Source: Calditrichia bacterium (lineage in GTDB: Bacteria > Calditrichota > Calditrichia > JAJRVZ01). From it: DNA of 64,000 nucleotides. The position numbers and the translations under genes are program-made. Shown here piece by piece: positions 6,954-30,400 of the stretch. The first letter of the stretch is position 1, and every line of letters starts with the position of its first letter. The notes beneath the pieces were generated by a model. That model made no database searches, was not told the DNA's origin, and saw only the letters and a list, made by a program, of their open reading frames with translations. The DNA lies in NCBI GenBank assembly GCA_963777955.1, contig CAVZSQ010000023.1, positions 1 through 64,000 of the forward strand, in the 5' to 3' direction.

Positions 6954-9900
6954 ATGAAGATGTTTAGACGGTTCATTGTACCGATTTTGCTGTTGATAGT
7001 GATAGCAGCACCTGCACTTTGGTCGGGAACAACCGGTAAGGTTGCCGGGATCATCACCGATAAGGCGTCTGGTGATCCTCTTCCTGCAGCGAATGTCATG
7101 ATCGCAGGAACTATGTTAGGTGCAGCAACCGATATGAACGGTGAATTCACCATTCTGTATGTTCCACCGGGAACTTACAATGTTCAGGTTTCTTACATCG
7201 GTTACGGCAGTGTCACGGTCAGCGACGTCAGGGTATACATTGACCAGACAGCCAGGGTGGACATTGCTCTGGAAACGCAGGCATACGAAGCGAGTGCCAC
7301 AGTTGTCTGGGCTGAACGGTCAAAAATCAGGAAAGATGTGTCTACCAGCGTAGTGGCCATCAATGACAAAGAAATCGAAGCCCTGCCGGTTACCAATGTA
7401 GTCAGTATTATCGGTTTACAGGCCGGTATCCGCGGTGGCTGGACCGGTAGTCTCGGTTACGCCGAGCAACCGGAATTCGTTTCCAACTATTCACGCGGCA
7501 AGGTCAGTGTCCAGGGTGGATTGAGTATTCGCGGCGGAGAGGGTGACAACATTCTATTTTTAGTTGACGGTATTACCCTGCGCGATCCCAGAAACAATGA
7601 ACCTCTGACCGGTATCCCGGTAAGTTCCGTTAAGGAAGTATCCGTAGAACGCGGTGGCTTCAGCGCTGAATACGGACAGGTCCGATCCGGTATCGTTAAT
7701 ACGATCAGCCAGGAAGGGAGCAAAATTGGTTACAGCGGAAATATGCAGGTCCGCGTCAGACCCCCGGCAGCAAAATACTGGCAGGGTAAGGGTATTAAAG
7801 ATGTACAGGATCCATATTCCTTCGCCTTGCGTCCCTTTTTCGATCCTGATGTCGCCTGGACTGGAACAGGTAACGGGGCCTGGGATCAATGGACTATGAA
7901 ACAATACCCGACATTTATAGGCTGGAACAAAGTTTCGCAGACACTTTGTACCGACAATGATCCAAATAATGATTTGACCCCCGAAGGTGCGCAACGGGCT
8001 TTTATGTATGAGACCAGGAAAAAAATAATCAATGATCAACCTGATTGGACCATTGATGCCGGTTTCGGCGGACCGATTCCATTTATCAGCAAAAATCTGG
8101 GGAATCTGCGCTTTTACACCGCCATTCGCACTTCCCGCGATGTATTGCTCGTGCCGTTAACCCGATCCGACTACCGGGATTATAACTGGACAGCACAATT
8201 AGTTTCGGATATCACTCCGACCATGAAACTGCGTATAAACGGATTACTGGGTAAACAATATACTATACGGCACAACTGGGATGCGACCGGAATTTACTAT
8301 TATCCGCATTACCCCAATGAGATTGCCAATGTGGCCAGCTATATCCAGGCCTCATCCGACCTGCCCGGACTGTTCTCTAATTTCAACTTTAGTTTATCGG
8401 ATGTCGGACAACAATCCCTGGCAGCCAAGTTTACTCATACTTTCAGTTCAAAAACAAGTTATGAAGTCTCAGTTGAACATTTCCGCCGGGATTACTTTAC
8501 GCGTCCAACGGCATTGCGCGATACATCTTTGAAATATGAAATCCTGCCCGGTTATTATCAGGACAGTAATCCAATGGGTTATTGGCCTGCTGGTACTAAC
8601 GGTGTGTTACTTTCCGGGAAAATGATGCATGTTTCCAAAGCACGCGATAATACTGTGGTTAATGCGACTACCTTTAAAGCCGATTTCATGAGCCAGCTTA
8701 ATTTTCAAAATTTATTAAAAGCAGGCGTCGAATTTAATTATAACGATCTGGACTTTGACTATGGCACCGTCGCTTCGGGTTCAGAGGGCAAGGTCTATTC
8801 AAGCCGGGTTAAGATGCGTGTGTTCCCCATCCGGGGTGCTTTGTATATTCAGGATAAACTGGAAACGCAGGGATTTACTCTGAACGCCGGGTTGCGTCTG
8901 GATTATACCGATTCCAACATCGAATGGTATAATGTGGATCCATATAATGCAGCCTTCTTCTCTTCCGATTATAACGCCACTCAGGTATTTACCAAACAAA
9001 AATCAAAAGGGACCTGGGATTGGAGCCCGCGTTTAGGTATTGCTCACCCGATCACTGAGAATTCCAAATTATTCTTCAATTATGGACATTATAAACAGGT
9101 TCCTCAATATGAAAGCTTGTACCGCCTGCAACGTAATGATACCGACCAGATGACCAGTTTTGGCAATCCGGATCTCTCACTGGCCAAAACCATCTCCTAC
9201 GAATTGGGTTATGATCATATCCTATTCGAAGATTATACGCTGCAGATCGCTGCTTTTTATAACGACATCTCAGATCAACAGGATTTTACTCTGTATAACT
9301 CCACGGCGATAGGTTTCGCCTACACCCAGGCTACTTCCAACAATTACGAAGATATCCGCGGATTCGAAGTGACCTTGCGTAAGAATCGTGGACGCTGGTG
9401 GTCAGGTTTTGCCAATTATACCTATCAGGTGAACACCCGCGGGCATTTCAACAGTTCACGGATGTTTGATAACGTATCGGATCAAAAGAATTGGGATGAA
9501 GCAACCATCAATCTGTATCAGGATCGTCCCATACCGCAGCCTTACGCCAGGGCAAATCTGAGTTTCTATACTCCGGATGATTATGGACCACAGGTTCTGG
9601 GACATAATATATTCGGTGGCTTCCTGGTAAATGCTTTGTTGGATTGGCAGGATGGTTACTGGACAACCTGGAATTACAACAACCTGGCTTCCATAGCCTA
9701 TAATGTACAGGCCATAGATTTCTTCAATACGGTTTTACGGGTGGAGAAAATCGTACCGGTAAGTAAATTCAGGGTACAAGTATTCATGGACATCAATAAT
9801 GTCTTTAATACACTACGTCTGTGGAATACAGCCGACCAGGATTATATGCTGTCGCTGCACCTGCCCAAGAGCGAAGCCTACCCGAATATTCCCGGAGATG

Positions 9901-10211
9901 ATAAAGTAGGTGAATACCGGAAACCAGGCGTTGAGTATCAACCTATGGTTTATCAGGCCGTTGTCGACCGGACTAAAACAGGTGAAGATCGTCCGATCTA
10001 TTACGAAGGCAGAACCGGTAAATACCTGCAGTATACTGATAATCCCAATCTGCCGATCTATCAGCGTTGGTCGGAAGTCGATCAGAAGAGACTCGACCGG
10101 ATTAATAAAGACAAAGCCTATATTGATATGCCGAATGCATCGACCTTCTGGTTTTTAAATCCACGCGATATCTTTTTCGGCATCAGGATATCGTTTAATT
10201 TTGGCGAATAG
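6954..10211 (+). CDS. TonB-dependent receptor 1 (carboxypeptidase-regulatory-like N-domain, plug, barrel)
   Basis: AAGGAG RBS and signal peptide; 'GTTGKVAGII.D..SGDPLP.ANV', plug 'IRGG....FLVDG', 'GGFSAEYG', 'LNAGLRLDY', 'SPRLGIAHP', 'GNPDL..KT.SYELG', terminal 'PR.IFFGIRISF'. Confidence 0.92.
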   Translation: MKMFRRFIVPILLLIVIAAPALWSGTTGKVAGIITDKASGDPLPAANVMIAGTMLGAATDMNGEFTILYVPPGTYNVQVSYIGYGSVTVSDVRVYIDQTARVDIALETQAYEASATVVWAERSKIRKDVSTSVVAINDKEIEALPVTNVVSIIGLQAGIRGGWTGSLGYAEQPEFVSNYSRGKVSVQGGLSIRGGEGDNILFLVDGITLRDPRNNEPLTGIPVSSVKEVSVERGGFSAEYGQVRSGIVNTISQEGSKIGYSGNMQVRVRPPAAKYWQGKGIKDVQDPYSFALRPFFDPDVAWTGTGNGAWDQWTMKQYPTFIGWNKVSQTLCTDNDPNNDLTPEGAQRAFMYETRKKIINDQPDWTIDAGFGGPIPFISKNLGNLRFYTAIRTSRDVLLVPLTRSDYRDYNWTAQLVSDITPTMKLRINGLLGKQYTIRHNWDATGIYYYPHYPNEIANVASYIQASSDLPGLFSNFNFSLSDVGQQSLAAKFTHTFSSKTSYEVSVEHFRRDYFTRPTALRDTSLKYEILPGYYQDSNPMGYWPAGTNGVLLSGKMMHVSKARDNTVVNATTFKADFMSQLNFQNLLKAGVEFNYNDLDFDYGTVASGSEGKVYSSRVKMRVFPIRGALYIQDKLETQGFTLNAGLRLDYTDSNIEWYNVDPYNAAFFSSDYNATQVFTKQKSKGTWDWSPRLGIAHPITENSKLFFNYGHYKQVPQYESLYRLQRNDTDQMTSFGNPDLSLAKTISYELGYDHILFEDYTLQIAAFYNDISDQQDFTLYNSTAIGFAYTQATSNNYEDIRGFEVTLRKNRGRWWSGFANYTYQVNTRGHFNSSRMFDNVSDQKNWDEATINLYQDRPIPQPYARANLSFYTPDDYGPQVLGHNIFGGFLVNALLDWQDGYWTTWNYNNLASIAYNVQAIDFFNTVLRVEKIVPVSKFRVQVFMDINNVFNTLRLWNTADQDYMLSLHLPKSEAYPNIPGDDKVGEYRKPGVEYQPMVYQAVVDRTKTGEDRPIYYEGRTGKYLQYTDNPNLPIYQRWSEVDQKRLDRINKDKAYIDMPNASTFWFLNPRDIFFGIRISFNFGE

Positions 10212-10230
10212 TAAAAATATAGAGGTATTC

Positions 10231-12489
10231 ATGAAAAAGCACATATTGAAAATTGTACAGCCGCTTCTGGTCTTAACCGTAGCCCTTTTTATTTTGGGCC
10301 TGGTTTCTCCCGGTTACGCTCAGACTATCAGATGGCTCCGCGTTGCCGAATTGCAGACCCCGGTCAATGAAATACTCGGAGAATATGAAGGTGAATTCAC
10401 GCAGGGTAATACAAACTTCTTTTCCTGGCCTGCGCAGTACAGCATTGACCAGAACACCAACCGTTGCAGGACTCTGTGGATTGGTTGCCGGCAATTCGAT
10501 GATCCGGTCGAAGGGAAAGTTAAAGGTTACAAGGTAATCGGACAGAACGCCAGGGACAATACGGCAGAACGAACCAATCAAATTTTTGAGCAGGAGATTA
10601 AATTAATCGGGAAAAATGCTCATCCCATTGTGGTTGTGGATGATCAAAACGCTACGATTCTTAATACCTATGACCTGGTGGACGATCTTGATCCCGATTT
10701 GCCCTGCGATCGAATGGTGCTGGTAAAAGCTAATACCTCGGTCGGTATTTCAGTCACGAAAAAGGTTATGTCCTTTGCCAATTCCGATCATGGTAATTAC
10801 AACATCAACGATTACGTATTTAAAAACACGGGGATTTATAACCGGACCGGGAGTGTGAAATCACAAACCTTGCATGAAGTTTACTTTTATTTTTCGCCCC
10901 GCTATTCACTGGCCGGTGTCAGTTGTACCGGTTACGGCCTGGGCTGGGGAGCCTGGAGTTCAACCTGGGGAAACAGCCAGATTATCCGTTCGTTCGGCGA
11001 GGATCCGACCAGTCCAGAGTTCACCGATCCTGTTTCAACTGTCTCGCAGGTTATGCGGGGTTATTTCTCCTGGTACGGACCGAATAAAGACCGTACAACG
11101 GTCTCCTATGATGAAGACTGGGGAGCTCCCAATGAACAGGAAGACGGAACACTGGGCAGTGCAAAATATATGGGGTGTCTGACCCTGCACGCCGACAAAT
11201 CTCCTGCTGATCCAAGTGACGATCTGTATCAACCCCATACAACCTGGTACATCAGCGCCGATATAAATGTTTTTCAACAGGCCGGTTGTTCGCAATACGA
11301 TGAAATTGCCATGGCCGACCGTTATGATGCGATGAGTGAAGGGCATCCTGCACCGGATCAGCAGCATTACCTGATTATTGGTGATGGTTATCCGATCGAC
11401 TATATCGATCCAAGACGTCAGACCGGAGGGGGTGTTGAGGAATCACAGAGCTATGGACCTTATGAAATAGCACCCGGCGACAGCATTCATATCGTTTTTG
11501 CTGAAGCAGCATCCGGAATTTCCTGGGAAAAAGGGCGTGAAGTCGGCGCAAACTGGCTGCAATACTTTAACCAGACCGGTACACCGAACCTGGTCTTGCC
11601 GAATGGTTCGACCACCACCGACCATAATCTTTACAAGCGCGCCTGGTGTGAAACAGGTCAGGATTCCATCCTGAAAACTTTCCGTTACGCCAAACTGAAT
11701 TATGAAAACGGGTATATTTTGCCTGATGCTCCTCTCCCACCCCCCAATTCGTTTACTGTAGCCTCGGGTGGAGACCGGATTCGGCTCAGTTGGGATGATA
11801 ATGCCACTTCTGCCTCAAACTTTGCTGGATATGTGGTTTACCGTTCTCGTGGGAATGTTCTTGATTGGCGAACCGTTTATGAAAAGATTTTTGAATGCGG
11901 TGCAAGTGATGCTGTCCACAGTTTTGACGATATAACTGCAATCAGGGGATTTGAATACTACTATTATATTCAATCCAAAGGTACAAAAACCGACGGCGGT
12001 ACGATTTACAGCAGTCTGTTCTGGACTATAACCAGTGTACCTGCTACGCTGCAACGCCCTGCCGGTAACCTTTTAGGTGAAGTACGCGTTGTTCCCAATC
12101 CCTACGACATCCGCAGTCGTAAGAATCAGTTTGGAGATAAATCGCAATATGATCAGATTGCCTTCTATGGAATCCCACCGCTATGCAAACTAAAAATCTT
12201 CACTGAGCGAGGCGATTTAATCTGGGAAAGAGACCATTCAAGCGGTACTGGTGATGAACGGTGGAATTCAATCACCTCTTCCGGACAAATTATAACTTCC
12301 GGAATTTATATATTATATATCGAAGTATCTGAAGATACCTATGCCAACGAAGATGTACGCGCCAGATATGACGTCTATGATGAAAATTTAAAACTGATGT
12401 TTCAACAAGATTCTCTTATGTTCCGACAAGGAGAAAAGATGTTCAAGAAAGGCGAATCCACTTTCCGCAAATTCGTTGTTATCAGGTAA
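10231..12489 (+). CDS. Secreted receptor-associated protein 1: unknown N-terminal domain, FN3-like domain, atypical 'VVPNPY' C-terminal sorting domain
   Basis: Signal peptide; Pro-rich linker 'PDAPLPPP'; 'IRLSW..GYVVYRS..FDD..GFEYYYYIQS'; 'VRVVPNPY..KIFTERG..W..SGIYI..RKFVVIR'. Confidence 0.75.
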   Translation: MKKHILKIVQPLLVLTVALFILGLVSPGYAQTIRWLRVAELQTPVNEILGEYEGEFTQGNTNFFSWPAQYSIDQNTNRCRTLWIGCRQFDDPVEGKVKGYKVIGQNARDNTAERTNQIFEQEIKLIGKNAHPIVVVDDQNATILNTYDLVDDLDPDLPCDRMVLVKANTSVGISVTKKVMSFANSDHGNYNINDYVFKNTGIYNRTGSVKSQTLHEVYFYFSPRYSLAGVSCTGYGLGWGAWSSTWGNSQIIRSFGEDPTSPEFTDPVSTVSQVMRGYFSWYGPNKDRTTVSYDEDWGAPNEQEDGTLGSAKYMGCLTLHADKSPADPSDDLYQPHTTWYISADINVFQQAGCSQYDEIAMADRYDAMSEGHPAPDQQHYLIIGDGYPIDYIDPRRQTGGGVEESQSYGPYEIAPGDSIHIVFAEAASGISWEKGREVGANWLQYFNQTGTPNLVLPNGSTTTDHNLYKRAWCETGQDSILKTFRYAKLNYENGYILPDAPLPPPNSFTVASGGDRIRLSWDDNATSASNFAGYVVYRSRGNVLDWRTVYEKIFECGASDAVHSFDDITAIRGFEYYYYIQSKGTKTDGGTIYSSLFWTITSVPATLQRPAGNLLGEVRVVPNPYDIRSRKNQFGDKSQYDQIAFYGIPPLCKLKIFTERGDLIWERDHSSGTGDERWNSITSSGQIITSGIYILYIEVSEDTYANEDVRARYDVYDENLKLMFQQDSLMFRQGEKMFKKGESTFRKFVVIR

Positions 12490-12500
12490 GGAGATGAAAA

Positions 12501-13511
12501 ATGAAAAAGAATACAGGTAAATATTTTATTATGCTTCTCATGGGTTATTTGCTGTGCAGCAGTGGATTTGCCCAGGAGAGAGAGAAATTAGCCCAGAGTG
12601 GCTTTCAATTTCTGAGCGTGGTCTCGGATGCCCGTGCTGCTGGTATGGCCGAAGCAATGACCAGTTTACAGAACGGTTCTAGTGCACTGTTTTTCAATCC
12701 AGCTGGTATGGCTGAGATGACTACTATGATCGATCTTAGCGCTAGTGTCAATCAATGGATAGCAGATATAAAGCATAATACCTTTAGTTTGGCTTTCAGA
12801 CCAGCGCAAGGTGAATATGGAGTTATCGGCCTCAGTGCCCAGAATGTGGATTATGGGGATTTTATCGAAACACGGGTAAGTAGCGATCCCGGCGATTTAA
12901 AGGGATATGAGGATGTTAAGATATTTAACTTAAGCGCTTTGGCCCTGGGTTTCGGTTACGCTAAACAGTTAACTGACCGGTTCAGTGTCGGTGGACAGGT
13001 ACGCTGGGTTAAACAGGATCTGGGTAACAGTTGGATACCAGTTACAGACAGCACCTCGAGAGATGTCGGGAATGAATTAACGCCGTTAGTATTTGATTTT
13101 GGCACACAGTTCAAGACGGGAATTAAGAGTCTGGTCTTCGGTATGTCAGTGCGGAATTTTTCCAAGGAAGTGAAATACGTGGAAGAGGGATTTCAGGCCC
13201 CGCTGGTATTCAGCCTCGGTTTATCGATGAATATGTTTGATCTGCTGCAGGAATTGCCGCTGGATCAGGCCCTGTATATGAGCGTCGATGCCTGTCATCA
13301 CCGCGATCATCCGGAGCAGGTTAAACTCGGTTTGGAATACAAGGTCATGAACCTGCTATCGCTGCGCGGCGGTTATGTCAGCAACAACGATGAAAATGAC
13401 GTCACGTACGGAATAGGAATTTCCCAGTTCGGTTTTACCTTCGATTACGCCTATACTCCGTTTGGCATCTTCGACAAGGTACATCGAATGACAGCCCGCT
13501 TTTCAATGTAA
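12501..13511 (+). CDS. PorV/PorQ-family (FadL-like) outer-membrane beta-barrel 1
   Basis: 'FL.V..DARAAGMAEA', 'ALFFNPAG', alternating beta-strands, C-terminal 'FDYAY..FG...HR....F'. Confidence 0.85.
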   Translation: MKKNTGKYFIMLLMGYLLCSSGFAQEREKLAQSGFQFLSVVSDARAAGMAEAMTSLQNGSSALFFNPAGMAEMTTMIDLSASVNQWIADIKHNTFSLAFRPAQGEYGVIGLSAQNVDYGDFIETRVSSDPGDLKGYEDVKIFNLSALALGFGYAKQLTDRFSVGGQVRWVKQDLGNSWIPVTDSTSRDVGNELTPLVFDFGTQFKTGIKSLVFGMSVRNFSKEVKYVEEGFQAPLVFSLGLSMNMFDLLQELPLDQALYMSVDACHHRDHPEQVKLGLEYKVMNLLSLRGGYVSNNDENDVTYGIGISQFGFTFDYAYTPFGIFDKVHRMTARFSM

Positions 13512-13531
13512 CCGGAAGAAGGAGAGAAATT

Positions 13532-14755
13532 ATGAAAGTGTATTTTAGATTAACGCTGGCGATTCTCTTCATAGCCGCAGCGATGATTTGTTTGCCGGGC
13601 TGTGAATACGACGTTACCCAGTCACAGTGGTATGACGACCATCCTGCTGAAGATTCACCCGCTATCACCGCAGTGCAACCGTCTGCAGCTACGGCTGGAG
13701 TGAATCTCATTACTCTGGTCGGTGAAAATTTTGCAGTTGCACCCGATTCCAATGATATCTATTTCGACAATTTGTTGGCCGAACTGGTTGATTACTCAGC
13801 GACTTCGATTACCGTGCGCAGACCCAACCTGGTAACCGATTCCTGTACCATCATGGTAGTTCCCAGAAGAAATGCTCTGGTGGTAGCCAAGTATGCTCAA
13901 CCGTATGATATCGATCCGGTAATCGGGAATTATGGTACTTTTATAGAAAATAAGTTTTTATCCGCTGTAACGGTCGATGCCGATGAAAATGTCTACGTAA
14001 CGAGTGTCGATTCCATGTATATCTTTAAAGTTGCCCCGGGCGCTTCTAAAGTCGTCGTGACCAAGGCGACCCAGGTACCGGTGGATATAAAATTAGGTCC
14101 GGACGGCAGACTTTACATGGTGGGCGGAGCAGGTGGAACCGGCGGTAACAGAGATATCTATGTCTGCAACCTGGAAACCGGAGTTGTCGAGCGCTGGGTC
14201 AGGCTGGCATCCGGAAAGAATGTGAAATTCGGCGAATTCGATGCCAACGGATATTTCTATGCCGGAGGTGGTAACCGCGTCGACATCTGGGTTATTGCCC
14301 CTGATGCCTCCTTTGTCGCTGCAAATTTATATGCCGCCAATGAAGTGCTGGCCATGAAGATCTTCGATAATTATTTATATGTTGTTGCCCGAACAGGTAC
14401 CGGAACCGCCGCGGTAACCGAAATTTATAAACATGCTATCGGTGCCAATGGTGCATTAGGTGCAGCGGAGTTTGTGCTGAATTTTTCTGACACGCCATTC
14501 GGCAGCCGGACGTTAAGAGCCATAACCTTCTCGGCCGCCGGTGTAATGTATATCGCTACCGATGATGTGAATCCCATACTGGTCGTCGATCCTTCGACCA
14601 GCGAGGTTGATTATTTTTACAAAGGAATATTACCCGCTTATGTCAGGGATTTTAACTGGGGTACGGGAAATTATCTCTACCTCGTCAGCGGCAGGACGGA
14701 TGTCCAGGATTGGACAGTCGACCGGGTTGATATGGGCGCTCTCGGAATAAGGTAG
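13532..14755 (+). CDS. Lipoprotein 1 with IPT/TIG domain and beta-propeller-like C-terminal region
   Basis: Lipobox LPGC; 'P.ITAVQP..A..G...ITLVGENF......IYF'; repeated 'D..G..Y' blades. Confidence 0.8.
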   Translation: MKVYFRLTLAILFIAAAMICLPGCEYDVTQSQWYDDHPAEDSPAITAVQPSAATAGVNLITLVGENFAVAPDSNDIYFDNLLAELVDYSATSITVRRPNLVTDSCTIMVVPRRNALVVAKYAQPYDIDPVIGNYGTFIENKFLSAVTVDADENVYVTSVDSMYIFKVAPGASKVVVTKATQVPVDIKLGPDGRLYMVGGAGGTGGNRDIYVCNLETGVVERWVRLASGKNVKFGEFDANGYFYAGGGNRVDIWVIAPDASFVAANLYAANEVLAMKIFDNYLYVVARTGTGTAAVTEIYKHAIGANGALGAAEFVLNFSDTPFGSRTLRAITFSAAGVMYIATDDVNPILVVDPSTSEVDYFYKGILPAYVRDFNWGTGNYLYLVSGRTDVQDWTVDRVDMGALGIR

Positions 14756-14791
14756 ATTTATCATTTAATCCGATCGAATAAAATAATTACT

Positions 14792-14836
14792 ATAAGAAGG
14801 CCGTTTCTGAGAATGCAGTAACGGTCTTCTTATTTT
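14792..14836 (+). terminator. Rho-independent terminator ending module 1
   Basis: ATAAGAAGGCCGTTTCTG / CAGTAACGGTCTTCTTAT stem plus T run. Confidence 0.7.
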
Positions 14837-14910
14837 ATGCCTTTATTTACAATTACCTTTGCTACCCCGCCAGAATAGACTCATACAGCAAAATATCATA
14901 ACTTTTCTGC

Positions 14911-14953
14911 TTGCATTTTTAATTCATGCTATTTAATATTGAATCGATTCAAT
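14911..14953 (+). promoter_or_regulatory. sigma70-type promoter for module 2 with overlapping perfect palindromic (LacI-type) operator
   Basis: TTGCAT-17 bp-TAATAT; ATTGAATCGATTCAAT at 14938-14953 covers the expected start site. Confidence 0.6.
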
Positions 14954-15100
14954 CAACTTTAAAACTTTTCAATTATTATGCACACGTTCCACAAAAAAGG
15001 GCATTCGCAAAACTAATTATTATTTTTGTGCTGAAAAAATCACGAAATCGGTGAATTTCATTAATTTTATATTTAATGTATAACTGAGGGAATAGAGACT

Positions 15101-16332
15101 ATGAAAGCGCGTATCTTTTTATCAGGTGCAGTTTTTGTTATCGTCACAACATTATTATTGATCATGGCAGGATGTGAATATGATGGCCCCACAGCCGTCA
15201 TTGATCAGCCGCATGGTGCCGCCGCACCGAACCGGTGATCACAGCCTTGATCCCGGATACGGCCAAAGCCGGCGTAAATTACATCACCATCGCAGGAGAG
15301 AATTTTTCCACTAAAGCGGGAAAGAATAAGGTCTACTTTGGCAATGTACCGGTAGATGCCGTCAGTGAATCGGCCACGGAACTGACAGTTCGCCGGCCAA
15401 ATCTGACCGGTGATTCTATCACGGTCAAAGTAGATAACATCGATGGTGCCCTGGTGGTTGCCACACGTGGACCTTATAAAATCGATCCGGTAATCGAAAA
15501 TTATGGCGCTTTTATTGAAAACCGATTTTTATCCGCCGTAACCGTCGATGCCGCTGAAAATGTCTACGTAACCAGTGTCGATTCCAACTATATATTTAAA
15601 GTTGCGCCCGGTGCCCAGAAAGTCGTTCTCACCAAAGCAACACAGGTGCCGGTGGATATTAAAATAGGTCCGGACGGCAGACTCTACATGGTGGGCGGAG
15701 GCAGCGGTACCGGCGGCAATAGAAATATCTTCGTCTGCAATGTACAAACCGGCGAACTCCACCAGTGGATCAGTCTGGCTACCGGTAAAAATGTGAAATT
15801 CGGTGAGTTCGACGCAAACGGTTATTTCTATGTCGGAGGCGGTAACCGCATCGATATCTGGGTTATCGCTCCTGATTCTACCTTTAGCTGCTGCAAATTT
15901 ATATGCCAGCTAATGAAGTGCTGGCCATGAAGATCTATGACAATTACCTGTATGTAGTGGCCAAGACAGGTACCGGGACAAGCGCGGTAACCGAAATATA
16001 TAAACATGCTATTGGTGACAATGGGGTATTGGCTGCGGCTGAATTTGTTCTGAACTGGACTTCCTCGCCATTCGGTTCCCGTACTTTAAGAGGACTTACC
16101 TTTTCATCTGCCGGGTATAATGTATATCGCCACCGATGCTGAAGATCCGCTACTGAGTTTTGATCCGGCGACCAGCGTGTTTGATTATCTTTATAAAGGA
16201 ATCCTACCTGCATATGTCAGGGATTTTCATTGGGGGAACGGGAATCAATTATACATGACCGCCGGCAGAACCGATGTACAGGACTGGATAGTCTACCGGG
16301 TCGATATGGGTACGACCTCCGGCTCTAACTGA
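15101..16332 (+). CDS. Lipoprotein 2 with IPT/TIG domain (paralogue of 13532-14755; about 3 frameshifts)
   Basis: MKARIFL..IMAGCEYD start, then ORF pieces 15235-15930, 15903-16142 and 16120-16332, nearly identical to lipoprotein 1 over the propeller region. Confidence 0.8.
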
Positions 16333-16368
16333 AATCTTTTATAAAATATAAAATTGCAGGTACCAACT

Positions 16369-19300
16369 ATGAGAAAACAAATTCGTACAATCATGATCTT
16401 TACCCTGCTGGGCGTATTGCTTTTACGTTTCCTGCTGCCTGGTCGGGAACAACCGGAAAGATAGCCGGGATTGTGACCGATAAAACCAGCGGCGAACCGC
16501 TGCCCGGTGCCAATATTGTAGTCGATGGAACATTATTGGGTGCGGTATTCGGATCTGGACGGTCAGTATACAATTTTGTACGTACCGCCAGGCACTTACA
16601 ATGTTCATGTTTCCTATATCGGTTATACCAAGGTGGTAGTCAGTGACGTCGTGGTAAATATCGATCTGACCGCTCGCCTGGATGTTGTTCTGGAAGCAGA
16701 AGCAATTGTGACTAACGAAACGATTGTTGTCGCCGAGAGAAAAATCATAAAGCCCGATGTGGCCTCCAGTGTGGTGGTAGTAACCACCGAGGAAGTAGCG
16801 GCCTTGCCTGTTTCCAGTGTACAGAGCATGGTCGGATTACAGGCGGGCATAAAAGACGGCTTGCAGATCCGCGGCGGTGGTGCTGATGAAGCGCTGGTGC
16901 TGATGGATGGCATTACCCTGCGCGATCCCCGCAATAACCTGCCCATCTCAAACGTTCCGCTGAGCGCGGTCAAGGAGATCAACATAGAACGCGGCGGTTT
17001 CAACGCCGAGTACGGACATGTCCGTTCAGGATTGGTCAATATGGTAATGCAGGAAGGCAGCCGCTCTGCCTACTTTGGCCGTGTTGAATTTAAATACGGC
17101 CCGCCCCAGGCCAAGCATTTTGACATCTCCCCATTTGATAAAAATTCATTCTGGCTGCGCCCGTATTATGATCCCGAGGTGTGCTGGACGGGGACCGCGG
17201 GAGAAGACTTCAGCGATGACATTATCGCTAACGGCTTTCATGACAATGGTGAATCATTCACTGATGTGAATGGAGACGGACGCTGGAACGGCTGGGATCA
17301 ATATACCCAGCGGCAGTATCCCGATTTTGAGGGCTGGAATGAAATATCGCGTTTATTATTGACCGACAGCAATCCGAATAATGATCTTACTCCCCTGGGT
17401 GCTCAGCGTGTGTTTGAATGGGAGACACGCAAAGAACCACGCTATAATCAACCAGATTACAATCTCGATGCCGGCATTGGCGGTCCGGTTCCGGTCATCG
17501 GTGAAAAATTGGGAAATCTGCGCTTTTTTACAGCCTATCGCCGCTACCGCGAAATGCTGGTGGTTCCGCTTACCCGCGACGATTATGTCGACTATGACTG
17601 GTCAATGAAGTTGACCTCAGATATTTCACCCTCGATGAAACTACTGGTATCCGGACTGATCGGCAAGCAGTTTACCATGCAGCACAACTGGTCTTACGCC
17701 TACCTGCGGACATCGGAAACGATCGCCAGTATCATGGAAGACCGCCCCGGTCTGTTGTTTGGCACGGGTAATTTCAGCCTGGCTGATATCAGCCATCGCA
17801 ATTTCTCAGCAAAGTTTACTCATATGTTGAATCAAAAGACCTTCTATGAAGTTTCCCTGGAACACATGTGGACCGGATATGATACCCGGCCGCCCGCCCT
17901 GCGCGACCAGACCAGACGGTATGAAATCGTCCCGGGATATTTCGTTGACGAAGCACCCTTCGGATATGATCCGTCCAATGAAGTTGGTATCGCCGGTATG
18001 CTGTTCGGAGGATTCACTTGCAAACGCCGGGACAATTCCAGGGCTGCGGCCACAACCGTTAAGGTCGATTTCTCCAGCCAGGTGAATTTCAGCAACCTGG
18101 TCAAAGCCGGTGTCGAATATGTTTATAACGATTTAAACTTCGATTACGGTATTATAAAATCACAAACCAGCGACATCTATGATGAACGTGTGCAGATGCA
18201 TGTCTATCCTGTACGCGCCGTCTTGTATGCCCAGGATAAACTGGAAACCAAAGGTTTTATAATGAACGCTGGGCCTGCGGCTTGATTACAGCAAATTCCC
18301 AGACGGATTGGTGGGATATAGGTCCTTATGATAAAAGTTTTTTTACCACCAAGTACAACAGCAGTATTGATTTTGCCAGCAAGAAATCCGAGGGACAATG
18401 GCAGTTGAGCCCGCGCCTGGGTATCTCTCATCCGGTTACCGAAAATTCCAAACTATTTTTCAACTACGGTCATTTTAAACAGATGCCTTCCTACCAGACC
18501 TTGTTCCAGGTGGCCCGGGCCGATGATCAAACCATGAAACAGTTCGGCGATCCAAATCTGATCCTGGCCAGAACTATATCCTATGAACTGGGTTATGATC
18601 ACAGCCTGTTCGATGATTATCTGATCCAGGTATCTGCTTTTTATCATGATATAACTGATCAGCAGGATTCCACCATTTACCGGTCTATCGGTGGTATCGT
18701 ATATAATCAGACTACCAGTAATAGTTACGAGGATATCCGCGGATTCGAGTTATCTCTGCAAAAGCGCCGCGGACGCTGGTGGACATTCTTCGGTAATTAT
18801 ACCTACCAGGTCAGCACTGCGGGTCATTTCGGCCGTGAGGAGGTATATCAGGACGGCGTGCAGCAGAAACTGTACGACGACGAAACGACCAATCTCTATC
18901 AGAATCGCCCGATCCCGACTCCGTATGCACGCCTCAATCTTTCTCTTTATACACCCGACGATTACGGACCTGAATTGCTGGGCCTGTATCCGCTGGGCGG
19001 ATATATGTTGAATTTGCTGTTGAACTGGCAGGATGGTCCCTGGAGAACTTATAATCCCAAGAATATTGCCGGACTGGAAAATAATGTTCAGGAAACCGAC
19101 TATGTCATATCCCTTTTACGCTTAAGTAAAACTTTCAGCCTCGGTAAATTTCAATTGATGGCTTTTATGGATGTCAACAACCTGTTGAATCACCGGCGTA
19201 TGTCGCTCTCGAATTTTACCGGTAAATACGGTGACGAGGACTACTATTATAACAGCCTGCATTTGCCGGAAAGTGAAGATTGGGATAATATTCCCGGGGA

Positions 19301-19613
19301 TGACCGGGCGGGCGCCTACCGCAAACCGGGCGTGGCTTACCAACCAATGTTCCCCAGAGGTACAATCAGTTTCTCGAGCGATAAAGGAGATGCCGGCGTA
19401 ATCTATTACGATAAGAGCAGAAAAAACTATTATGAATACAATTATAATCCGAATCTGCCTAATTACCAGTGCTGGCAGGTGGTCAGCAAAGCCCGGATTG
19501 ATAAAATCAATGACGACAAAGCCTATATAGACATGCCGGCTTACAGTTCTTTCTCATTTTTCAATCCGCGGCAATTTTTCTTCGGTCTGCGGGTTTCTAT
19601 GCAACTTAAATAA
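16369..19613 (+). CDS. TonB-dependent receptor 2 (frameshifts near 16430, 16550, 18280)
   Basis: MRKQIRTIMI.. start, 'WSGTTGKIAGIV' in a shifted frame, ORFs 16525-18285 and 18282-19613 colinear with receptor 1. Confidence 0.88.
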
Positions 19614-19637
19614 GATATATGAGCGAGAGGAATATAT

Positions 19638-21882
19638 ATGCTGCATTTAAAATCAATAACCAGAAATGGCTGGCTGCTGCTGGCAGCGGCTGTTTTCATT
19701 CTCTGCACAGGCAACCTTAAACTTCCGGCCCAGGGCACTTCGGGCGAATTGAAATGGATCCGGGTAGGAACACTGCAAACCTATTTTTCCGAACAAAATT
19801 CCGAAGTGGAGAGCCGGAGGACTCGATGACCTGAATATACGCGTCTCCTGGCCGGCACAATATGGTTTGCGCCAGTCCACCATGCGCGGACGTACCTTGT
19901 GGCTGGGCTGCACGAATTTCTATGATTCCCAGGTCGATAGAACCTTCGCGGCTAAAATCGTCGGAGTCGGACCAAGATATGATGATAATCTGCGTAACGA
20001 AGTACTTGTTCCGCCGGTGGAATTCAAACTGGTGGGAAAATATGAGCATCCAGCTGTAATCGTCGATGGTGCCGATGGTACTATTAATACCCTCTATGAC
20101 GCAGTTGAGGAAATCGATGAAAACTTGGTGGCCGACCGCATGATGCTGATAAAAAACAATACCTCTATCGGTGTCACCATTACCAAGAAAGTGTATGCTT
20201 TCACCCAGCAAAATCACGATAATTACTTCATTTTTGATTATGTCCTTAAAAATACCGGCATTGTCAGTGCCGACGGAGACGTTTATCCGCAGAATTTAAC
20301 CGGTTTAATTTTTTATCTCGGTTATCGTTATGCATTCGCCGGCGAATCGGTTCTTGGTTATGAGCAAGGCTGGGGTATCTGGAATTCCGCCTGGGGCAGA
20401 AATACTGTCAACGATGTCATCGGTACCGATCCTACTGCGAATGATTTTCTGTACCGCGCTCATTTTGCCTGGTACGGCCCCCATTCTGAACGGCCGCTGC
20501 CTACGATTGAAGATGATTGGGGTTGTCCCAACGAACTGGATGACGGTATAATGGCTGCAGCCAAGTTCGGCGGTGCCATGGTCCTGCACGCCGATGAATC
20601 AGCCCAGGATCATAGTGATGATCTTTATCAACCCAGAACAACCCATTTCATCGATACGGATGGTGATCCGTGTTATCCCCCGTCACTGTATACATACAAC
20701 GAGCAATATATGCAGATACGTTATGCTACAATGACTTTGGGACATGCCGCCCAGACTCAGGCCCAGCAGATCGAAGCCAGCGGCCTTCCGGCCAATGAGT
20801 GGGGACCGGGCATCGGCGGATCGCAATCGACATTTGGATTCGGACCATATGAACTGGCCCCCGGTGACAGTCTGCATTTTGTCATAGCCCAGGGTTATTC
20901 CGGAATCAGCCGGGAGAAAAACCGCGAAGTGGGCGGCAACTGGCTGCAATGGCATAGAGGGACAGGTTCACCGACTCTGACTATGCCCGATGGCGCAACT
21001 TCAACCAATCATACCGAATACAAAAAAGCCTGGGTTCTGACTTGCAAAGATTCGCTGATGCAAACATTCGCCAATATGAAAGCCAATTTTGATTCCGGTT
21101 ATGATATTCCCCAGCCGCCCCCGCCTCCCAGTTCGTTTACTGTCACCTCGGGCGGAGACAAAATCCTGCTGACCTGGGCAAACAACGCCGCCTCTACCCC
21201 CCACTTCGGCGGATATGTGATTTACCGCTCCCGGGGTACCGTAATGTCTGAAAATACTGTCTATGAGAAGTTATATGAAACAAATGAAGATGTTACTTCA
21301 TTTGAAGATAAGACCGCTGTACGGGGATTTGATTACTACTACTATATACAATCCAAGGATGATGGCACACAAAATGATGTTCATCCAGGCACTCCGTTAT
21401 ACAGCGGTATGTTCTGGACCATTACCAGCCTGCCGGCCTCCCTGCAGCGCCCGGCCGGAAATTACCTGGAAGAAGTTCGGGTAGTTCCCAATCCCTACGA
21501 TATCCGTAACCGTAAGAACCAGTTTGGCGATGATTCCCAGTATGACCAGATTTCCTTTTACGGAATCCCGCCGGTATGCAAACTGAAAATCTTTACCGAA
21601 ACGGGCGTTCCGGTCTGGGAGAAAGATCACACCATCGGCACCGGCGATGAACGCTGGAATTCAATAACCACTTCCGGGCAGATAGTTGCCAGTGGAATCT
21701 ATATCCTGTATGTTGAGGTAACCGAAGATACTTATGCCAGTGAAGATCAGATAGCCAGGTATGATGTGTATGATTCCGACCTGAAGTTAATGTACCAGAC
21801 AGGCGATGTGATGTTCAGGCAGGGGGAGAAGATGTTCTCAAAAGGCGAATCCACTTACCGTAAATTCGTCATCATCAGGTAA
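19638..21882 (+). CDS. Secreted receptor-associated protein 2 with FN3 and 'VVPNPY' CTD (frameshift near 19815)
   Basis: Signal peptide in 19638-19829, remainder in 19867-21882; colinear with 10231-12489. Confidence 0.75.
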
Positions 21883-21893
21883 GGAGATGAAAA

Positions 21894-22905
21894 ATGAAAA
21901 AGAACACAACTAAATATACGATTATACTGTCTTCTGGCATGTTTATTGTGCACTAATGGACTTGCCCAGGAGAACCAGAAATTGGCCCAGAGCGGCTTTC
22001 AATTCCTCAGCGTGGTTTCGGATGCCCGGGCAGCCGGTATGGCTGAGGCTATGACCAGCCTGCAGTTCGGTTCCAGCGCGCTGTTCTTCAACCCGGCCGG
22101 TATGGCGGAAATGTCCACTTTTATCGATGCCACAGCCAGCATTAACCAGTGGATTGCCGATATCCAGCACAACACCTTTACCCTGGCCATCAATCCGGCC
22201 CAGGGCAATTACGGTGTGTTCGGCTTCAGTTTGCAGAGCGTGAATTATGGTGATTTTATTGCTACACTGGTAAACCGGGATCCCAACGATCTGAAGGGGT
22301 ACACGGATGTCGAGATATTTCAACTGAGCGCGTTGGCCATGGGTGTCGGTTATGCCAAGCAATTAAGCGACCAGTTCAGCGTCGGCGGGCAGGTACGCTG
22401 GGTTAACCAGGATCTGGGTAACAGCTGGATACCTCTTACTGACACTACCAGCAAAGAAATAGGTAACGAGTTATCGCCGCTGGTATTTGACTTTGGTACC
22501 CGGTTCAAGACCGGTATCAAGAGTCTGGTATTTGGTATGTCGGTGCGGAATTTTTCCAAAGAAATGAAGTATGTCGAAGAGGGTATTCAGGCACCTTTGA
22601 CTTTCACCCTTGGCTTATCGATGAATGTCCTTGATCTGGTCAAGGAGTTGCCCTTTGACCAGGAATTGTATCTGAGCGTCGATGCCAGTCATTACCGCGA
22701 TCATCCGGAACAAATTAAAGTGGGTATGGAATACCAGGTAATGAACATGCTGGCACTGCGCGGCGGGTATGTAAGCAACAATTACGAAAGCGGACTCTCG
22801 CTGGGTCTGGGAATTTCACAGTTCGGTTTTGCCTTTGACTATGCCTATACCCCCTTTGGCATTTTCGACAAGGTACATCGCATGACGGTCCGGTTTTCAA
22901 TGTAA
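21894..22905 (+). CDS. PorV/PorQ-family beta-barrel 2 (1-nt frameshift in the signal peptide)
   Basis: Same TAAGGAGATGAAAA-ATG junction as copy 1; highly similar protein. Confidence 0.85.
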
Positions 22906-22917: not shown

Positions 22918-22970
22918 TGTGTTATTTCGCATCCCAATCCCCGGGATGCGAAATAACACATTATTTTTTT
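22918..22970 (+). terminator. Rho-independent terminator ending module 2
   Basis: 18-bp perfect stem TGTGTTATTTCGCATCCC / GGGATGCGAAATAACACA plus T run. Confidence 0.85.
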
Positions 22971-23144
22971 CTCATTAAATAATCCCTGCGGCTATTATTT
23001 ATAAACAATCCCGGTAAATATATTGATATAAAAAGTTGGTACTGTTGAAATAAGTTTGATATATTTTAATAAATTAATTCGATATTTGATAAACTCCAGA
23101 TGGTAATTAGTCACAATTAATCTTAAAACGAAAGGTTATTGAGA

Positions 23145-24288
23145 ATGAAACCATATCTGCAGCTCAGATCTATTTTCATAATAATATTTTTAGGTTTTAT
23201 TTGCAGTCTCCCGGCAGATTCAAAAAACGGCAAGGCCCAGGATGAACCGGTTTTAGCACCCGATGTAGCGTCTACACCTCCAACTATTAACGGCCTGACC
23301 GATGACACCTGCTGGCAAAATGTGCCCTGGCAAAGCATTGACCAGGTCTGGATCCCCTACGACGGCAGCGTCACCACGGATGACTACACCGGTCATTATA
23401 AAATAATCTGGTCCTCGACCACCAACCTGCTGTATTTGCTGATAGAAGTCACGGATGATGTATTCATGGACGGATATGTACCCGGACAAACCGTAGGTCC
23501 TTATAATTTTGATATTACCGAGGTTTTTATTGATGAAGATACCTCCGGCGGTGAGCATAGATATGAAAACCCGCCGTTAAATGCTGAGAATGCTTTCGCC
23601 TATCATATTTATGCCGATTTCCCGGCTGCAGGTGAAGTCACTACCAACAATATCGTTGATGATATGGACGGTCCCAACTTGGCCCGCGTTGACTACACGG
23701 CCCATCTTCCTGAATTTGCGCTGCGCCAGAGCGGAAACACAGCCGTCTGGGAGTTTTCGCTGATCGTGTATAACGATACCTATGAATCGAACAACCAGGA
23801 GCCAGCCAGGGTAATATTGCAGGCTGATAAAGTCATAGGCATGTCTGTGGCATATTGTGACAACGATAATCCCGATGAGAATCCGATTACCCGCGACAAT
23901 ATGTTCGGATCGGTTTGGGAAGCATCACCGGGTAATATGCATTGGATGAATGCCGACGGTTACGGCCGGATTAAACTGGTCGAGAGTATTCCGAGCTTAT
24001 ATTCCTGCCGGGTCGTCAAAGGTTTCCCCCGGTAGCATTAAACTCTACCCCAATCCGGCTTCGTCATCCATGCAACTACAAATAGTCAATCCATATCAGG
24101 GCAATGTTTCTATCCGGGTTTTCAATCTGCTGGGCCAGGAAGTGCTGCGTACCTCCGGCAGCAAATCAGATCAAACGTTTAATAAAACCCTTGCCCTGAA
24201 TCATCTGCCGGCAGGAATTTACTTTGTCCAGACCCAGATGGGACAACTTTTGTATCGTGATAAACTTATAATCACACCGCATAAATAA
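23145..24288 (+). CDS. CBM9-like sugar-binding protein with T9SS-type CTD (frameshift near 24000)
   Basis: 'PPTING..DD..W', 'W....LY....V.DD', 'D..EVFIDED.SGG.H', 'G..VAYCDND'; CTD 'LYPNPA..VFNLLGQ..GIYFV' in 23950-24288. Confidence 0.75.
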
Positions 24289-24323
24289 GGAAATCAAAAC
24301 AATCCGGAGATTGTCCAAAAGTA

Positions 24324-24466
24324 TTATTCCGAATCCCGATCCGGCTCGATAGACCTGCCGACAGGCAGGCGCCGGACGGGATTGGTAATGCCACTTTCTG
24401 TCATTTCGAGTGAGTCCCGATCGCTAGACCTGCCATCAGGCAGGTATCGGGACGAGCGAGAAATCT
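24324..24466. repeat. REP-like cluster with doubly nested palindromes
   Basis: CCCGATCCGGC[..AGACCTGCCGACAGGCAGG.]GCCGGACGGG and GTCATTTCGA..GTCCCGAT[..AGACCTGCCATCAGGCAGG]TATCGGGAC..GAGAAATCT. Confidence 0.8.
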
Positions 24467-24510
24467 TAACTACCTGTCCGATTACAGAACCATAAAATAG
24501 AACTCACCTG

Positions 24511-24539
24511 TTGAAAAAATGCAATTTATTGCATAAAAT
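24511..24539 (+). promoter_or_regulatory. sigma70-type promoter with an inverted repeat in the spacer
   Basis: TTGAAA-17 bp-TAAAAT; ATGCAAT-TT-ATTGCAT at 24519-24534. Confidence 0.55.
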
Positions 24540-24604
24540 CATTGCATATAACAGTCGTAAAATCCAATTCATAAAGTCCTGAAAAAAATGATTGAAGGTA
24601 CACT

Positions 24605-27451: not shown

Positions 27452-27469
27452 AGTGCTGGGAGGTTGCAA

Positions 27470-30400
27470 ATGAAATATTTCAGGAAACTAGTGATACTAG
27501 TTTCATTTTTTGCCGTTTCCTGGGTTATCTCATTATGGGCAGGAAATACCGGGAAGATTGCCGGGACGATAATCGATAAAGCCACAGGGGAAGCCTTTCA
27601 GGAGGTCAAAATCGCAATCGAGGGATTATCCATAAACACCCTTTCAGATGTAAAAGGTCAATATGTCATTTTGGCTGTTCCTCCAGGCAAATACGCTGTT
27701 AAATTCTCTTTCCCGGAGTACAAAGACATTATCATATATGATGTTCAGATCGACATAGATCAGACCAGCTGGGTATATGTTGCTATGGAATTACAGCTCT
27801 CAGCGAATGATACGCTGGACCTGGGCGCGGAAAATAAAATCATCCGGCCGGATGTTACTACTAGTTCAGTGACAATATCCAAGGAGCAGGTCCAGGAATT
27901 ACCCATCAACAATGTAGTGAGCGCCATTGGGTTGCAGGCTGGAATCCGCGGTGGTTGGAATTCTGCTCTGGCTAGTGGCAGATATGTAAACCAGGGCTTC
28001 GGCGATGCATATTCACAAGGAAAAATCAGCGTACAGGGAGACTTGACTATTCGCGCTGGCGACGGGGATAATATCCTTTTCCTGGTGGATGGTGTTACGA
28101 TGAGGGATCCCAGGAATAATGAAACCCTGACCAAAATACCGTTGAGTGCTGTGAAAGAAGTCTCCGTAGAAAAGAACGGCTTCAGTGCCGAATATGGACA
28201 GGTTCAATCCGGAATTGTTCACGTCATCAGCAAAGAAGGTAGTAAAAATATATATTCCGGAAATTTACAACTCCGCTATACGCCACCTGCCCCAAAGTAC
28301 TGGGACGGGGCGGGAATCCGGGATGTTCAGGATCCTTACTCATACCTGCTGCGTCCCTTTTTTGATCCTGCCGTGTGCTGGACCGGAACAGACAACGGAT
28401 CATGGGATTATTATACACAACGACAATATATTGAATTCGCAGGATGGAATGAATTTTCCAGGACATTAATTGCGGATGATGATCCGACCAACGATTTGAC
28501 TCCAGCAGGAGCACAACGGGTATTCATGTATGAAATCAGAAAAAAACGCCCCATGAATCAGTCCGATTATGATATCGATGCAGGATTTGGAGGACCTGTT
28601 CCACTAATCGGTCAGGCGTTGGGTAGCCTGCGTTTTTATACTTCACTACGTACTCATCGTGAGATGCTGTTATTCCCCCTAACCCGCCCGGATTACCGGG
28701 ACTATGACTGGACCCTGCTGCTGAATTCCGATCTTACGCCGGCGATTCAACTTCGTTTAGCTATCATGAATGGAAAACAGTATACTATCCGTAACAACGA
28801 TACGGAAACCGGTGTCTACTCATACCCGCATACTGCAGAGGAAATTGTTTACGCTACGGAAATTCAAAATAGATCTGTCGATCTATCTAAATTATTCTCG
28901 GATTTTTACTTCTGTTTGGCTGATATCGGGTACAACTCTATTTCGGCCAGGCTGACTCATTCTTTAAGTTCTAAAACTTTCTACGAAGTATCATTAGAAC
29001 ATTTCCGGCGGGAATACAATGTACGACCACCCGCCTTGCGGGACACCAGTCGGCAATATGAAATTATTCCAGGTTATTTTGAGGATAGCAATCCATTCGG
29101 CTACTGGCCGTATCAATCAAAAGGATTATATGTAACTGAGGGCAGATTTTCTTCCTTAGCCCGTGACTTTACTACCGTTAGTTCAACAACACTGAAAGCC
29201 GGTTTCAGTCATCAGCTAAACTTTCAGAATCTACTAAAAACTGGATTCGAATTTGTTTATCATGATCTGCATTTCGATTACGGAACAATTCATTCTGGCA
29301 GCGGAGGTCAGGCTTATAGCGCTAGAGTACAGATGAACGGTTTTCCTATCCGCGGAGCATTATATGCTCAGAACAAATTCGAAATTAGCAAACTGACTAT
29401 AAATGCCGGATTACGTCTGGATTACAGCAATTCCAATAAAGACTGGTGGGATGTAGATCCATTCGATGGAAATTTCTTTTCATTCCGTTATAATCGCCTG
29501 AATTTAACTTTTGACAAACAGGCATCAAAAGTGATATGGCAATTGAGTCCACGATTCAATCTAGCCTGGATGATTTTTGCTAATTCCAAGATTTTCTTTA
29601 ACTATGGATATTTCAGAGAATTATCTCAATATGAGACACTATTTAGAGTCGAACGCGTCGATGGCAGTACTATGAAAAGTTTTGGAGATCCCAGTATCGT
29701 TCCGGCAAAGACTGTTGCCTATGAGATTGGATTTGAACAAATTCTATTTGCAGATATTTTATTTAATGGCACAATATTCAGAAAAGATATTTCAAACCAG
29801 CAAGATATCACTAATTATTCTTCCATTGCTATACATTATGCCAAAACAACTGCTAATTATTTTGAAACTCAAAGCGGTTTTGAGTTGACACTACGTAAAA
29901 ATACTGGCAGATGGTTAACCGGTTTTATCAACTACACCTACCAGGAAAATAAAAAAGGATATAATGGTAGTTTAAATCTATATGAGGATCCAAATGACCA
30001 GAGATTTTGGGATATGTATTTACCCCATTATAATCATGATCACGCCAATCCCCAACCTTATGCCCGAGCCAGTATCAATTTACATACACCGGAAGAATTT
30101 GGTTCCGTAATAGCAGAACAAAAGCTGTTGGGCAGTCTATGTTTAAATATACTGGTGGACTGGCAGGCTGGCTACAGGTCTACCTATAATCCGAAAAATC
30201 TTCCCGATGTCCTATATAATGTTAAATCAGTGGATTTCTTCAACATAGCGCTACGATTACAAAAAATCTTTGATTTCGGAAAGTTCAGCCTACAATTCTT
30301 TGTGGACATGGACAATGTCCTGAATTCCCTCCGGCTATGGATACCCAGCGAGGAGGCTTATTACTCAGACAATTATTATTACATGGCGTCCCTCCATCTG

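Follow-up and report, generated by a model that had tools for sequence, protein, structure and literature searches.

A duplicated receptor, partner and barrel gene set that heads a glycan locus in a Calditrichia bacterium as a candidate substitute for the SusC/SusD pair

The window analyzed here, which is the whole 64-kb stretch (positions 1 to 64,000 of contig CAVZSQ010000023.1) of a 4.24-Mb, 91.8% complete assembly of a Calditrichia bacterium, carries two copies of a four-gene set encoding a TonB-dependent receptor (T), a partner protein (P), an outer-membrane barrel of the PorV/PorQ family (V) and a lipoprotein (L). DnaE of this assembly shares 62% identity with that of the Calditrichaceae genome carrying the related locus L064 and 50-51% with those of two KSB1 genomes, which makes membership in Calditrichota probable. 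The original prediction for this DNA was that the duplicated set forms a glycan-uptake module in which P takes the place of SusD. Copy 1 (6954-14755) consists of four intact, closely packed forward-strand open reading frames (ORFs), T1, P1, V1 and L1, and copy 2 (15101-22905) contains the same genes in the predicted order L2-T2-P2-V2. Both sets likely capture plant-wall sugars in place of a SusC/SusD pair. The interpretation toward which we lean, with slightly better than even confidence, is that P is exported via SprA, is held on V by its C-terminal domain (CTD) and serves as the sugar-capturing partner of T, doing the job of SusD with an unrelated fold.

SusD/RagB is an all-alpha, TPR-containing lipoprotein, and no gene of this type was found. 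The three SusD models PF07980, PF14322 and PF12771 matched neither P1, P2 nor anything else in the genome, and all three gave matches in B. thetaiotaomicron, which served as a control. Beside related cassettes, no SusD was found among 157 cluster representatives of 306 neighboring ORFs in a scan (74 representatives at E 1e-5 and 83 at E 1e-12, best five families each) that could miss weak matches. The signal region of P1 has no lipobox Cys, and the AlphaFold2 model of P1 (mean predicted local distance difference test [pLDDT] 88.3) is mostly beta, with a beta-supersandwich and linker helices followed by an FN3 domain and the CTD. P1 and P2 belong to no named Pfam family and gave only sub-threshold matches to CHU_C and to the PorZ C-terminal domain, while profile comparison matched P1 to FN3 and PorZ. 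Neither protein matched the type A CTD models PF18962 and TIGR04183, although adjacent enzymes do, and the scores for the type B model PF13585 (CHU_C), 17.6 and 19.7, lie below the cut-off of 27. By structure, residues 613-752 of P1 resemble the PorZ CTD (VIA-align Z 11.9, root-mean-square deviation [rmsd] 3.0, 87 aligned residues, 28% identity). A phmmer search of the PDB with the CTD alone found nothing significant, and a search of the ESM Atlas with the N-domain returned only unnamed clusters. The P family is large, with 395 clusters at 50% identity and E below 1e-30.

T is a TonB-dependent receptor as judged by its plug and barrel, and import through it would putatively be driven by TonB. 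T1 matches PF13620 (CarboxypepD_reg) and scores above cut-off with PF07715 (plug) and PF00593 (TonB barrel), and with the SusC/RagA model TIGR04056 it scores 66.7 bits against a cut-off of 368.25. The T1 model (pLDDT 85.8) superimposes on TonB receptors with Z values of 22-32, the best being BtuB (Z 32.3, rmsd 3.4 over 529 residues), compared with Z 26.7 and rmsd 4.5 over 612 residues for SusC (8aa4). A special likeness of T to SusC was rejected, since the model is no nearer to SusC than to other TonB receptors. In the genome, four matches to TonB_C exceed the cut-off.

The gene set is conserved well beyond the window, in line with the original prediction. Linkage was counted by tblastn across 67 loci that belong to Ignavibacteriota, KSB1, Marinisomatota, Calditrichota and unplaced bacteria; these are the best 80 of 229 matches, and they are not independent because selection by best match yields close relatives. 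T lies directly upstream of P in 65 of the 67 P genes with room for it, V lies downstream of P in 48/48, and L follows V in 43/43. The two P genes without T or V encode P homologs with an ordinary type A CTD at the end. Within the same phylum, where tandem cassettes are common, 75 of 86 genomes match the P profile, and one cultured bacterium, Rosettibacter primus (locus L054), carries the cassette. In the genome under study, 13 ORFs score at least 45 bits on the profile of the variant CTD, and all 13 have T and V in the same locus; V stands directly behind only 3 of the 137 ordinary type A CTD ORFs. Likewise, 14 receptors score above 170 bits, and 13 of them have a partner. Variations in layout were also observed. 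One triad of the genome is ordered T-V-P behind a hybrid two-component regulator (locus L070, G000:C7), and an extra gene for a 190-330-residue protein of unknown type separates either P from V or T from P at six other loci (L086, L087, L092, L094, L095 and L097), with one of the same kind in the genome itself (L068:12410-13156, G000:C3).

The divergence of the proteins suggests which of them work together. Across 30 complete cassettes, the distances of the T barrel and the P N-domain were correlated with a rho of 0.82 (0.76 when length-matched), compared with 0.52 for T-V, 0.53 for P-V and 0.19 for T-L, and bootstrapping over cassettes placed the TP-TV difference at 0.08-0.35 and the TP-PV difference at 0.07-0.38. 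The two copies in the window show the same pattern: P1 and P2 are 53% identical overall, with the N-domain (44%) and T (about 50%) diverged and the CTD (79%), V (78%) and L (70%) kept. Because the T barrel co-diverges with the P N-domain more than with V or L, T and P are likely the specificity pair.

A competing explanation, which we consider unlikely, makes P a surface protein that is anchored by V, binds glycans and gathers substrate close to T, with no role as a lid and no need for contact with T, the receptor being lidless like the sugar transporters of this type in proteobacteria. This would agree with the failure of the T model to stand closer to SusC than to lidless receptors, and with CBM5/12 domains in 19 of the 120 P homologs listed, which in those read are inserted between FN3 and the CTD. 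It would also agree with the existence of a third receptor of the family, T3, which has neither a partner nor a barrel gene alongside and is the single exception among the 14 receptors. T3 is 67% identical to T1 in the plug, 56% in the barrel, 38% in the N-terminal extension and 29% in the TonB-box region, and it may borrow P1 or P2, act without a lid or be decaying. In addition, some free type A CTD proteins contain the N-domain and FN3 as a module joined to beta-helices, BNR/sortilin propellers or dockerin (P0121, P0152, P0221 and P0232; loci L030, L033 and L089, all three without T or V alongside). However, the one-to-one pairing of T and P in 13 diverged triads is tighter than a loose accessory needs, and the co-divergence of the T barrel and the P N-domain exceeds that of every other pair, whereas L does behave as a loose accessory. 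As a separate observation on proteins of this kind, positions 58-1941 of the window encode a type A CTD protein with a beta-helix that runs off the start of the contig, and its N-terminal part, in which acidic repeats precede a segment similar to the last part of the supersandwich, resembles the larger partner class by eye.

The presence of a PorV-like barrel beside P was also borne out. V1 and V2 score 174.4 and 169.8 bits with NF033709 (cut-off 90), V1 matches F. johnsoniae PorV by profile comparison (E 1.5e-5), and V1 falls below the equivalog cut-offs for PorV, PorQ and PorV2 (69/250, 64/220 and 57/325, respectively). PF11751, the PorP/SprF model, matched neither V1 nor V2, and gave one weak match elsewhere in the genome. 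As the original prediction had expected, complex prediction for V1 and the FN3-CTD part of P1 placed the CTD on the adjacent barrel: V1(25-336) with P1(498-752) scored 0.91, compared with 0.25 for the best of three controls. Of complexes with solved structures, 116 of 157 pass the mark for this score, as do 2 of 215 mismatched pairs. Contact agreement among the runs was at least 91%, the pLDDT of the partner was at least 81, and 161-168 contacts were confident. The interface lies wholly within the P1 CTD and on its most conserved motifs. Lys747 of P1 (97% conserved) contacts V1 residues 88, 90, 118 and 121 in the model, which parallels the contact of RemZ Lys1110 with PorV described in the portion of PMC10994853 available to us. 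Binding of the P CTD to V is, on this modeling, highly probable, although the result may show likeness and not binding by this particular copy, since PorV-CTD complexes have already been solved. In terms of structure, P would resemble a type IX secretion system (T9SS) cargo in having a C-terminal Ig-like sandwich, a conserved terminal Lys and predicted binding to a PorV-type barrel.

Two precedents had been invoked for such a barrel. The likeness to PorV was upheld, and PorZ-PorQ is a better precedent than PorP/SprF, because V is of the PorV/PorQ family and the CTD of P is closest to that of PorZ. In an alternative that we regard as improbable, V is a specialized shuttle only, carrying P from SprA to T, which alone then holds P. 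Consistent with this, PorV lets go of its type A cargo, localization is directed by cognate shuttles (PMC12618676, in part), and relatives at loci L085, L087, L089, L093 and L098 have second T-P pairs without a V of their own. These pairs precede a type A CTD protein of about 1040 residues, and they may share the V of the adjoining cassette. Against a mere shuttle stand the size of the predicted interface and the CTD being the most conserved part of P, as well as the precedent of PorZ and PorU, which keep their uncleaved CTDs on their barrels according to the part of PMC10202324 that was available.

The fold of P bears on a further alternative, in which P would work at the surface as a mutarotase, lyase or novel hydrolase and trim or convert the substrate ahead of import; we regard this as very improbable. 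Aldose epimerases and some lyases, which match P1 with Z values of 12-13.6, use the supersandwich fold for catalysis. The nearest folds to the P1 N-domain, however, are the non-catalytic N-domains of GH15/65/94/116 enzymes (dextran dextrinase N-domain: VIA-align Z 18.6, rmsd 3.5, 258 aligned residues, 7% identity), and the P1 model lacks their catalytic (alpha/alpha)6 barrel and runs on into FN3 and the CTD. Over 101 P sequences, every invariant column of the N-domain is a Gly or a Pro, and conservation of His and Glu residues reaches at most 78% among 66 distant homologs. Aldose 1-epimerases have a conserved catalytic His/His/Glu set. P gave no match to their Pfam family, and His187, His320 and Glu53 are 74-78% conserved at positions that were not mapped on the model. 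The evidence supports the view that P is neither a SusD homolog nor a recognizable enzyme, which were two of the outcomes that would have spoken against the original prediction.

The fourth gene is accessory. L1 was correctly predicted to be an IPT lipoprotein: it matches PF01833 (IPT/TIG), with propeller-repeat profile matches at residues 135-259 and a match to CGTase domain D at 34-126, and Cys24 is invariant in 55 homologs. A phmmer search of the PDB with L alone found nothing significant. In homologs at loci L001-L064, the lipidated Cys is followed by acidic residues (C-E/K-Y-D), which presumably resembles the signal for lipoprotein export in Bacteroidota. In Bacteroides, BtuB or XusA is capped by a propeller lipoprotein, and L, a propeller lipoprotein that follows V in 43/43 close relatives, might be the lid while P has another job; this is the least probable alternative, because just 3 of the 13 triads of the genome have L, a fourth having perhaps a fragment of it, and the divergence of L barely follows that of T.

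Several points weigh against P as a secreted lid for T. One concerns secretion. The predicted export of P by a T9SS-like route is supported by SprA, found in 30/30 cassette genomes, by a PorU-like peptidase C25 gene beside a V in the genome under study, and by the predicted docking of the CTD. The motor components are another matter: GldM was detected in 0/30 and GldN in 0/13 cassette genomes (positive controls 14/61 and 6/6, respectively) in a search that could miss diverged homologs and did not include GldK, GldL, PorE or SprE. The export step is therefore unexplained, because cargo release in F. johnsoniae needs the motor (PMC10994853, in the portion available). T9SSs may exist in other phyla of the Fibrobacterota-Chlorobiota-Bacteroidota (FCB) group, as the part of PMC11285876 available to us indicates. 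Also, SusD and the module are not exclusive. Single SusD matches were found in 7 of 30 cassette genomes. Among 60 sampled Bacteroidota genomes, the P profile matched 32 (many via the CTD only), and none of the 14 genomes in which GldM exceeds its cut-off is among them. At least 8 SusD matches were found in 11 of these 14, compared with 0-7 in the 32 module-positive genomes, of which 15 have none and 17 have 1-7. This contrast is not an independent test, since it largely separates taxonomic classes. Co-divergence is expected of co-inherited neighbors, pairwise distances are not independent, and the split-half reliability of V (0.55, compared with 0.73-0.75) narrows the gap in the correlations. 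The complex model is blind to whether V is a lasting anchor or a passing shuttle, and to whether the barrel is cognate or non-cognate. The partnerless T3 and the free N-domain modules count on the same side, the latter showing that the P module can occur without T. Lastly, 9 of the 32 large loci have no CAZyme (carbohydrate-active enzyme) in view, no baseline for CAZyme density was computed, and several triads of the genome adjoin peptidases or unknown genes. In a related observation, locus L080 (G000:C13:134562-148300) of this genome has, behind sprA, a propeller and CTD gene in a PorZ-like layout and two tandem PorV-family genes.

If P does serve as the lid of T, the assembly might work as follows. 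The variant CTD (P1 residues 609-752) is predicted to bind the loops and the N-terminal segment of V through its RVVPNP and RKF motifs. By analogy with PorZ-PorQ and with type B CTD cargo on PorP/SprF, V would collect P at SprA and keep it uncleaved at the surface. The supersandwich domain could then pair with the extracellular face of T, the two jointly selecting an oligosaccharide, with FN3 as a stalk or hinge. TonB-ExbBD would open T, and periplasmic GH31, GH2 and GH3 enzymes would complete the breakdown. L would be an accessory surface lipoprotein, comparable to the glycan-binding proteins in the SusE position, and not the core lid. In the two copies, V and L have stayed nearly identical as scaffolds while the T-P pairs have diverged, and the copies probably take different oligosaccharides.

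The predicted association with CAZyme genes was confirmed in the window and mostly held elsewhere. The genes at 23139..44899 encode a CBM9 protein with a CTD, GH31 with PA14, GH13, MFS, amidohydrolase/enolase/SDR/FAA-hydrolase proteins, GH2, GH12 and a GH51-like protein with a CTD. They are 45-74% identical to enzymes that recur beside related cassettes, where a GH31 cluster occurs in 24 loci and GH2 in 17, and a CAZyme or carbohydrate-binding module (CBM) gene is present in 23 of the 32 loci that span 17 kb or more. Elsewhere in the genome, triads adjoin GH94/CBM9, GH53/GH2, GH16/GH30 and GH130. The pieces of the window GH31 are 72-74% identical to the recurring GH31, whose best solved relative is the BoGH31A alpha-xylosidase (1039 bits), and the MFS permease, amidohydrolase, enolase-family, SDR and FAA-hydrolase genes at 32818-38991 are, as we take them to be, similar to the oxidative L-fucose pathway. 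Because a BoGH31A-like GH31 occurs with GH2, GH3, GH12 and these genes, the substrate is likely a xyloglucan-type hemicellulose. Caldithrix abyssi grows on xyloglucan, according to the available part of PMC5317091. In addition, the type A CTD protein at 42896-44899, weakly like GH51 and conserved beside the cassette in 10 loci, is possibly an uncharacterized glycosidase. The glycan locus also contains, at 44900-49581 on the minus strand, DUF6057, a TolB-like propeller lipoprotein and an FkbO/Rid-like gene.

The remaining features of the locus are listed in Table 1. Copy 2 has at least eight single-base frame changes, with at least three in L2, three in T2, one in P2 and one in V2, so that every gene is hit. 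In the contig of a relative (about 90% identity), the extra base is missing at 15889, 15905, 16115, 16416, 16434 and 16547; this comparison covers six of the breaks, and the others are not among the matches listed. The frameshifts are probably assembly errors rather than recent decay, because the relative lacks the extra bases and unrelated genes nearby (GH31, GH13, GH2 and a sulfatase-family gene) are split likewise. Each copy had been credited with its own promoter and terminator. Terminator-like hairpins were found after both copies, but a sigma-70 scan gave 40 matches, compared with 34.7 +/- 6.6 expected, which is chance level, so that separate promoters rest only on AT-rich gaps. A LacI-operator-like palindrome upstream of both copies (exact at 14939-14952, with two mismatches at 6635-6648) was rejected as evidence because it was chosen post hoc; it is as frequent in 12 of 100 shuffles and occurs upstream of 1 of 54 related T genes and in 3 of 280 control windows. 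The segment 56001-60000 has low GC (34-39%, compared with about 46%) and few long ORFs.

Table 1. Positions of the cassette genes, their terminators and related features in the window.
Feature	Position	Strand	Remarks
T1, TonB-dependent receptor, 1085 aa	6954..10211	+	Signal peptide, CarboxypepD_reg-like N-terminal extension, plug, barrel with large inserts
P1, partner, 752 aa	10231..12489	+	Signal peptide, N-domain, FN3, variant CTD
P1 beta-supersandwich and linker helices	~10321-11721	+	
P1 FN3	~11728-12051	+	
P1 variant CTD	~12052-12486	+	
V1, PorV/PorQ-family outer-membrane barrel, 336 aa	12501..13511	+	
L1, lipoprotein (Cys24), 407 aa	13532..14755	+	IPT/TIG, then beta-propeller
Terminator-like hairpin ending copy 1, after L1	14792..14833	+	-22.5 kcal/mol, z -5.38, 0/200 shuffles
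L2, lipoprotein gene	15101..16332	+	Frameshifted; 70% identity to L1 over longest piece
T2, TonB-dependent receptor	16369..19613	+	Frameshifted; ~50% identity to T1
P2, partner	~19638..21882	+	Frameshifted near 5' end; identity to P1: N-domain 44%, FN3 63%, CTD 79%
V2, PorV/PorQ-family barrel	21894..22905	+	Frameshift in signal peptide; 78% identity to V1
Terminator hairpin ending copy 2, after V2	22918..22960	+	18 bp; z -9.5
Downstream glycan-use genes	23139..44899	+	Pfam
T3, third receptor of the T family	27473..30748	+	54% identity to T1; no partner or barrel gene alongside

Each principle in this proposal is known from another system. As in SusC/SusD (RagA/RagB) utilisomes, T has a CarboxypepD_reg-like extension and the gene for a surface partner directly after it, and accessory lipoproteins, CAZymes and hybrid two-component or LacI regulators surround the cassettes; in contrast, T fails the SusC model, and P is a supersandwich/FN3/CTD protein, not an all-alpha lipoprotein, and has its own membrane barrel. 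The Bacteroides ovatus xyloglucan locus also has a GH31 alpha-xylosidase with PA14, GH2, GH3 and an IPT-containing lipoprotein, its SGBP-B, to which we presume L to be comparable; here, T-P-V replaces SusC/SusD, and several enzymes bear type A CTDs rather than being anchored by lipids. In PorZ-PorQ and PorU-PorV of the T9SS attachment complex, an uncleaved CTD is likewise seated on a PorV-family barrel (PMC10202324, in part), but those pairs process cargo, whereas the P-V pair occurs 13 times in this genome and always behind a TonB receptor. The genes for type B CTD cargo and its cognate PorP/SprF barrel (SprB-SprF, PG1035-PorP) are adjacent as P and V are, and the barrel anchors the cargo (PMC9143113 and PMC12618676, in part), but V and P fall outside the PorP/SprF and CHU_C models. 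The word TonB is absent from the main text of both articles. No description of the T-P-V gene set was found in full-text literature searches that mostly left out subscription journals, and the combination is a conserved, apparently undescribed variant of the transporter-plus-surface-partner design.

More broadly, and tentatively, T-P-V could be a second, independently evolved utilisome, in which a supersandwich lid, secreted by the T9SS and hinged via a distinct class of CTD on a PorV-type barrel of its own, caps TonB importers throughout FCB lineages outside Bacteroidia and is exported by SprA without the GldLM/GldKN energy chain; we would put this at somewhat less than an even chance. It would raise the puzzle of how SprA releases cargo in genomes without detectable GldM or GldN. 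Polysaccharide utilization loci are recognized by the susC/susD pair. If T-P-V substitutes for that pair, it would allow uptake loci that have been overlooked to be recognized in Calditrichota, KSB1, Ignavibacteria, Marinisomatota and their kin. In Ignavibacteriales, susCD is reported to be scarce in gene clusters (PMC10576277), and the available part of that article names no substitute. The module would also represent a new family of glycan-binding folds and a further class of CTD with its own carriers, and it would connect type IX secretion directly with import by TonB.

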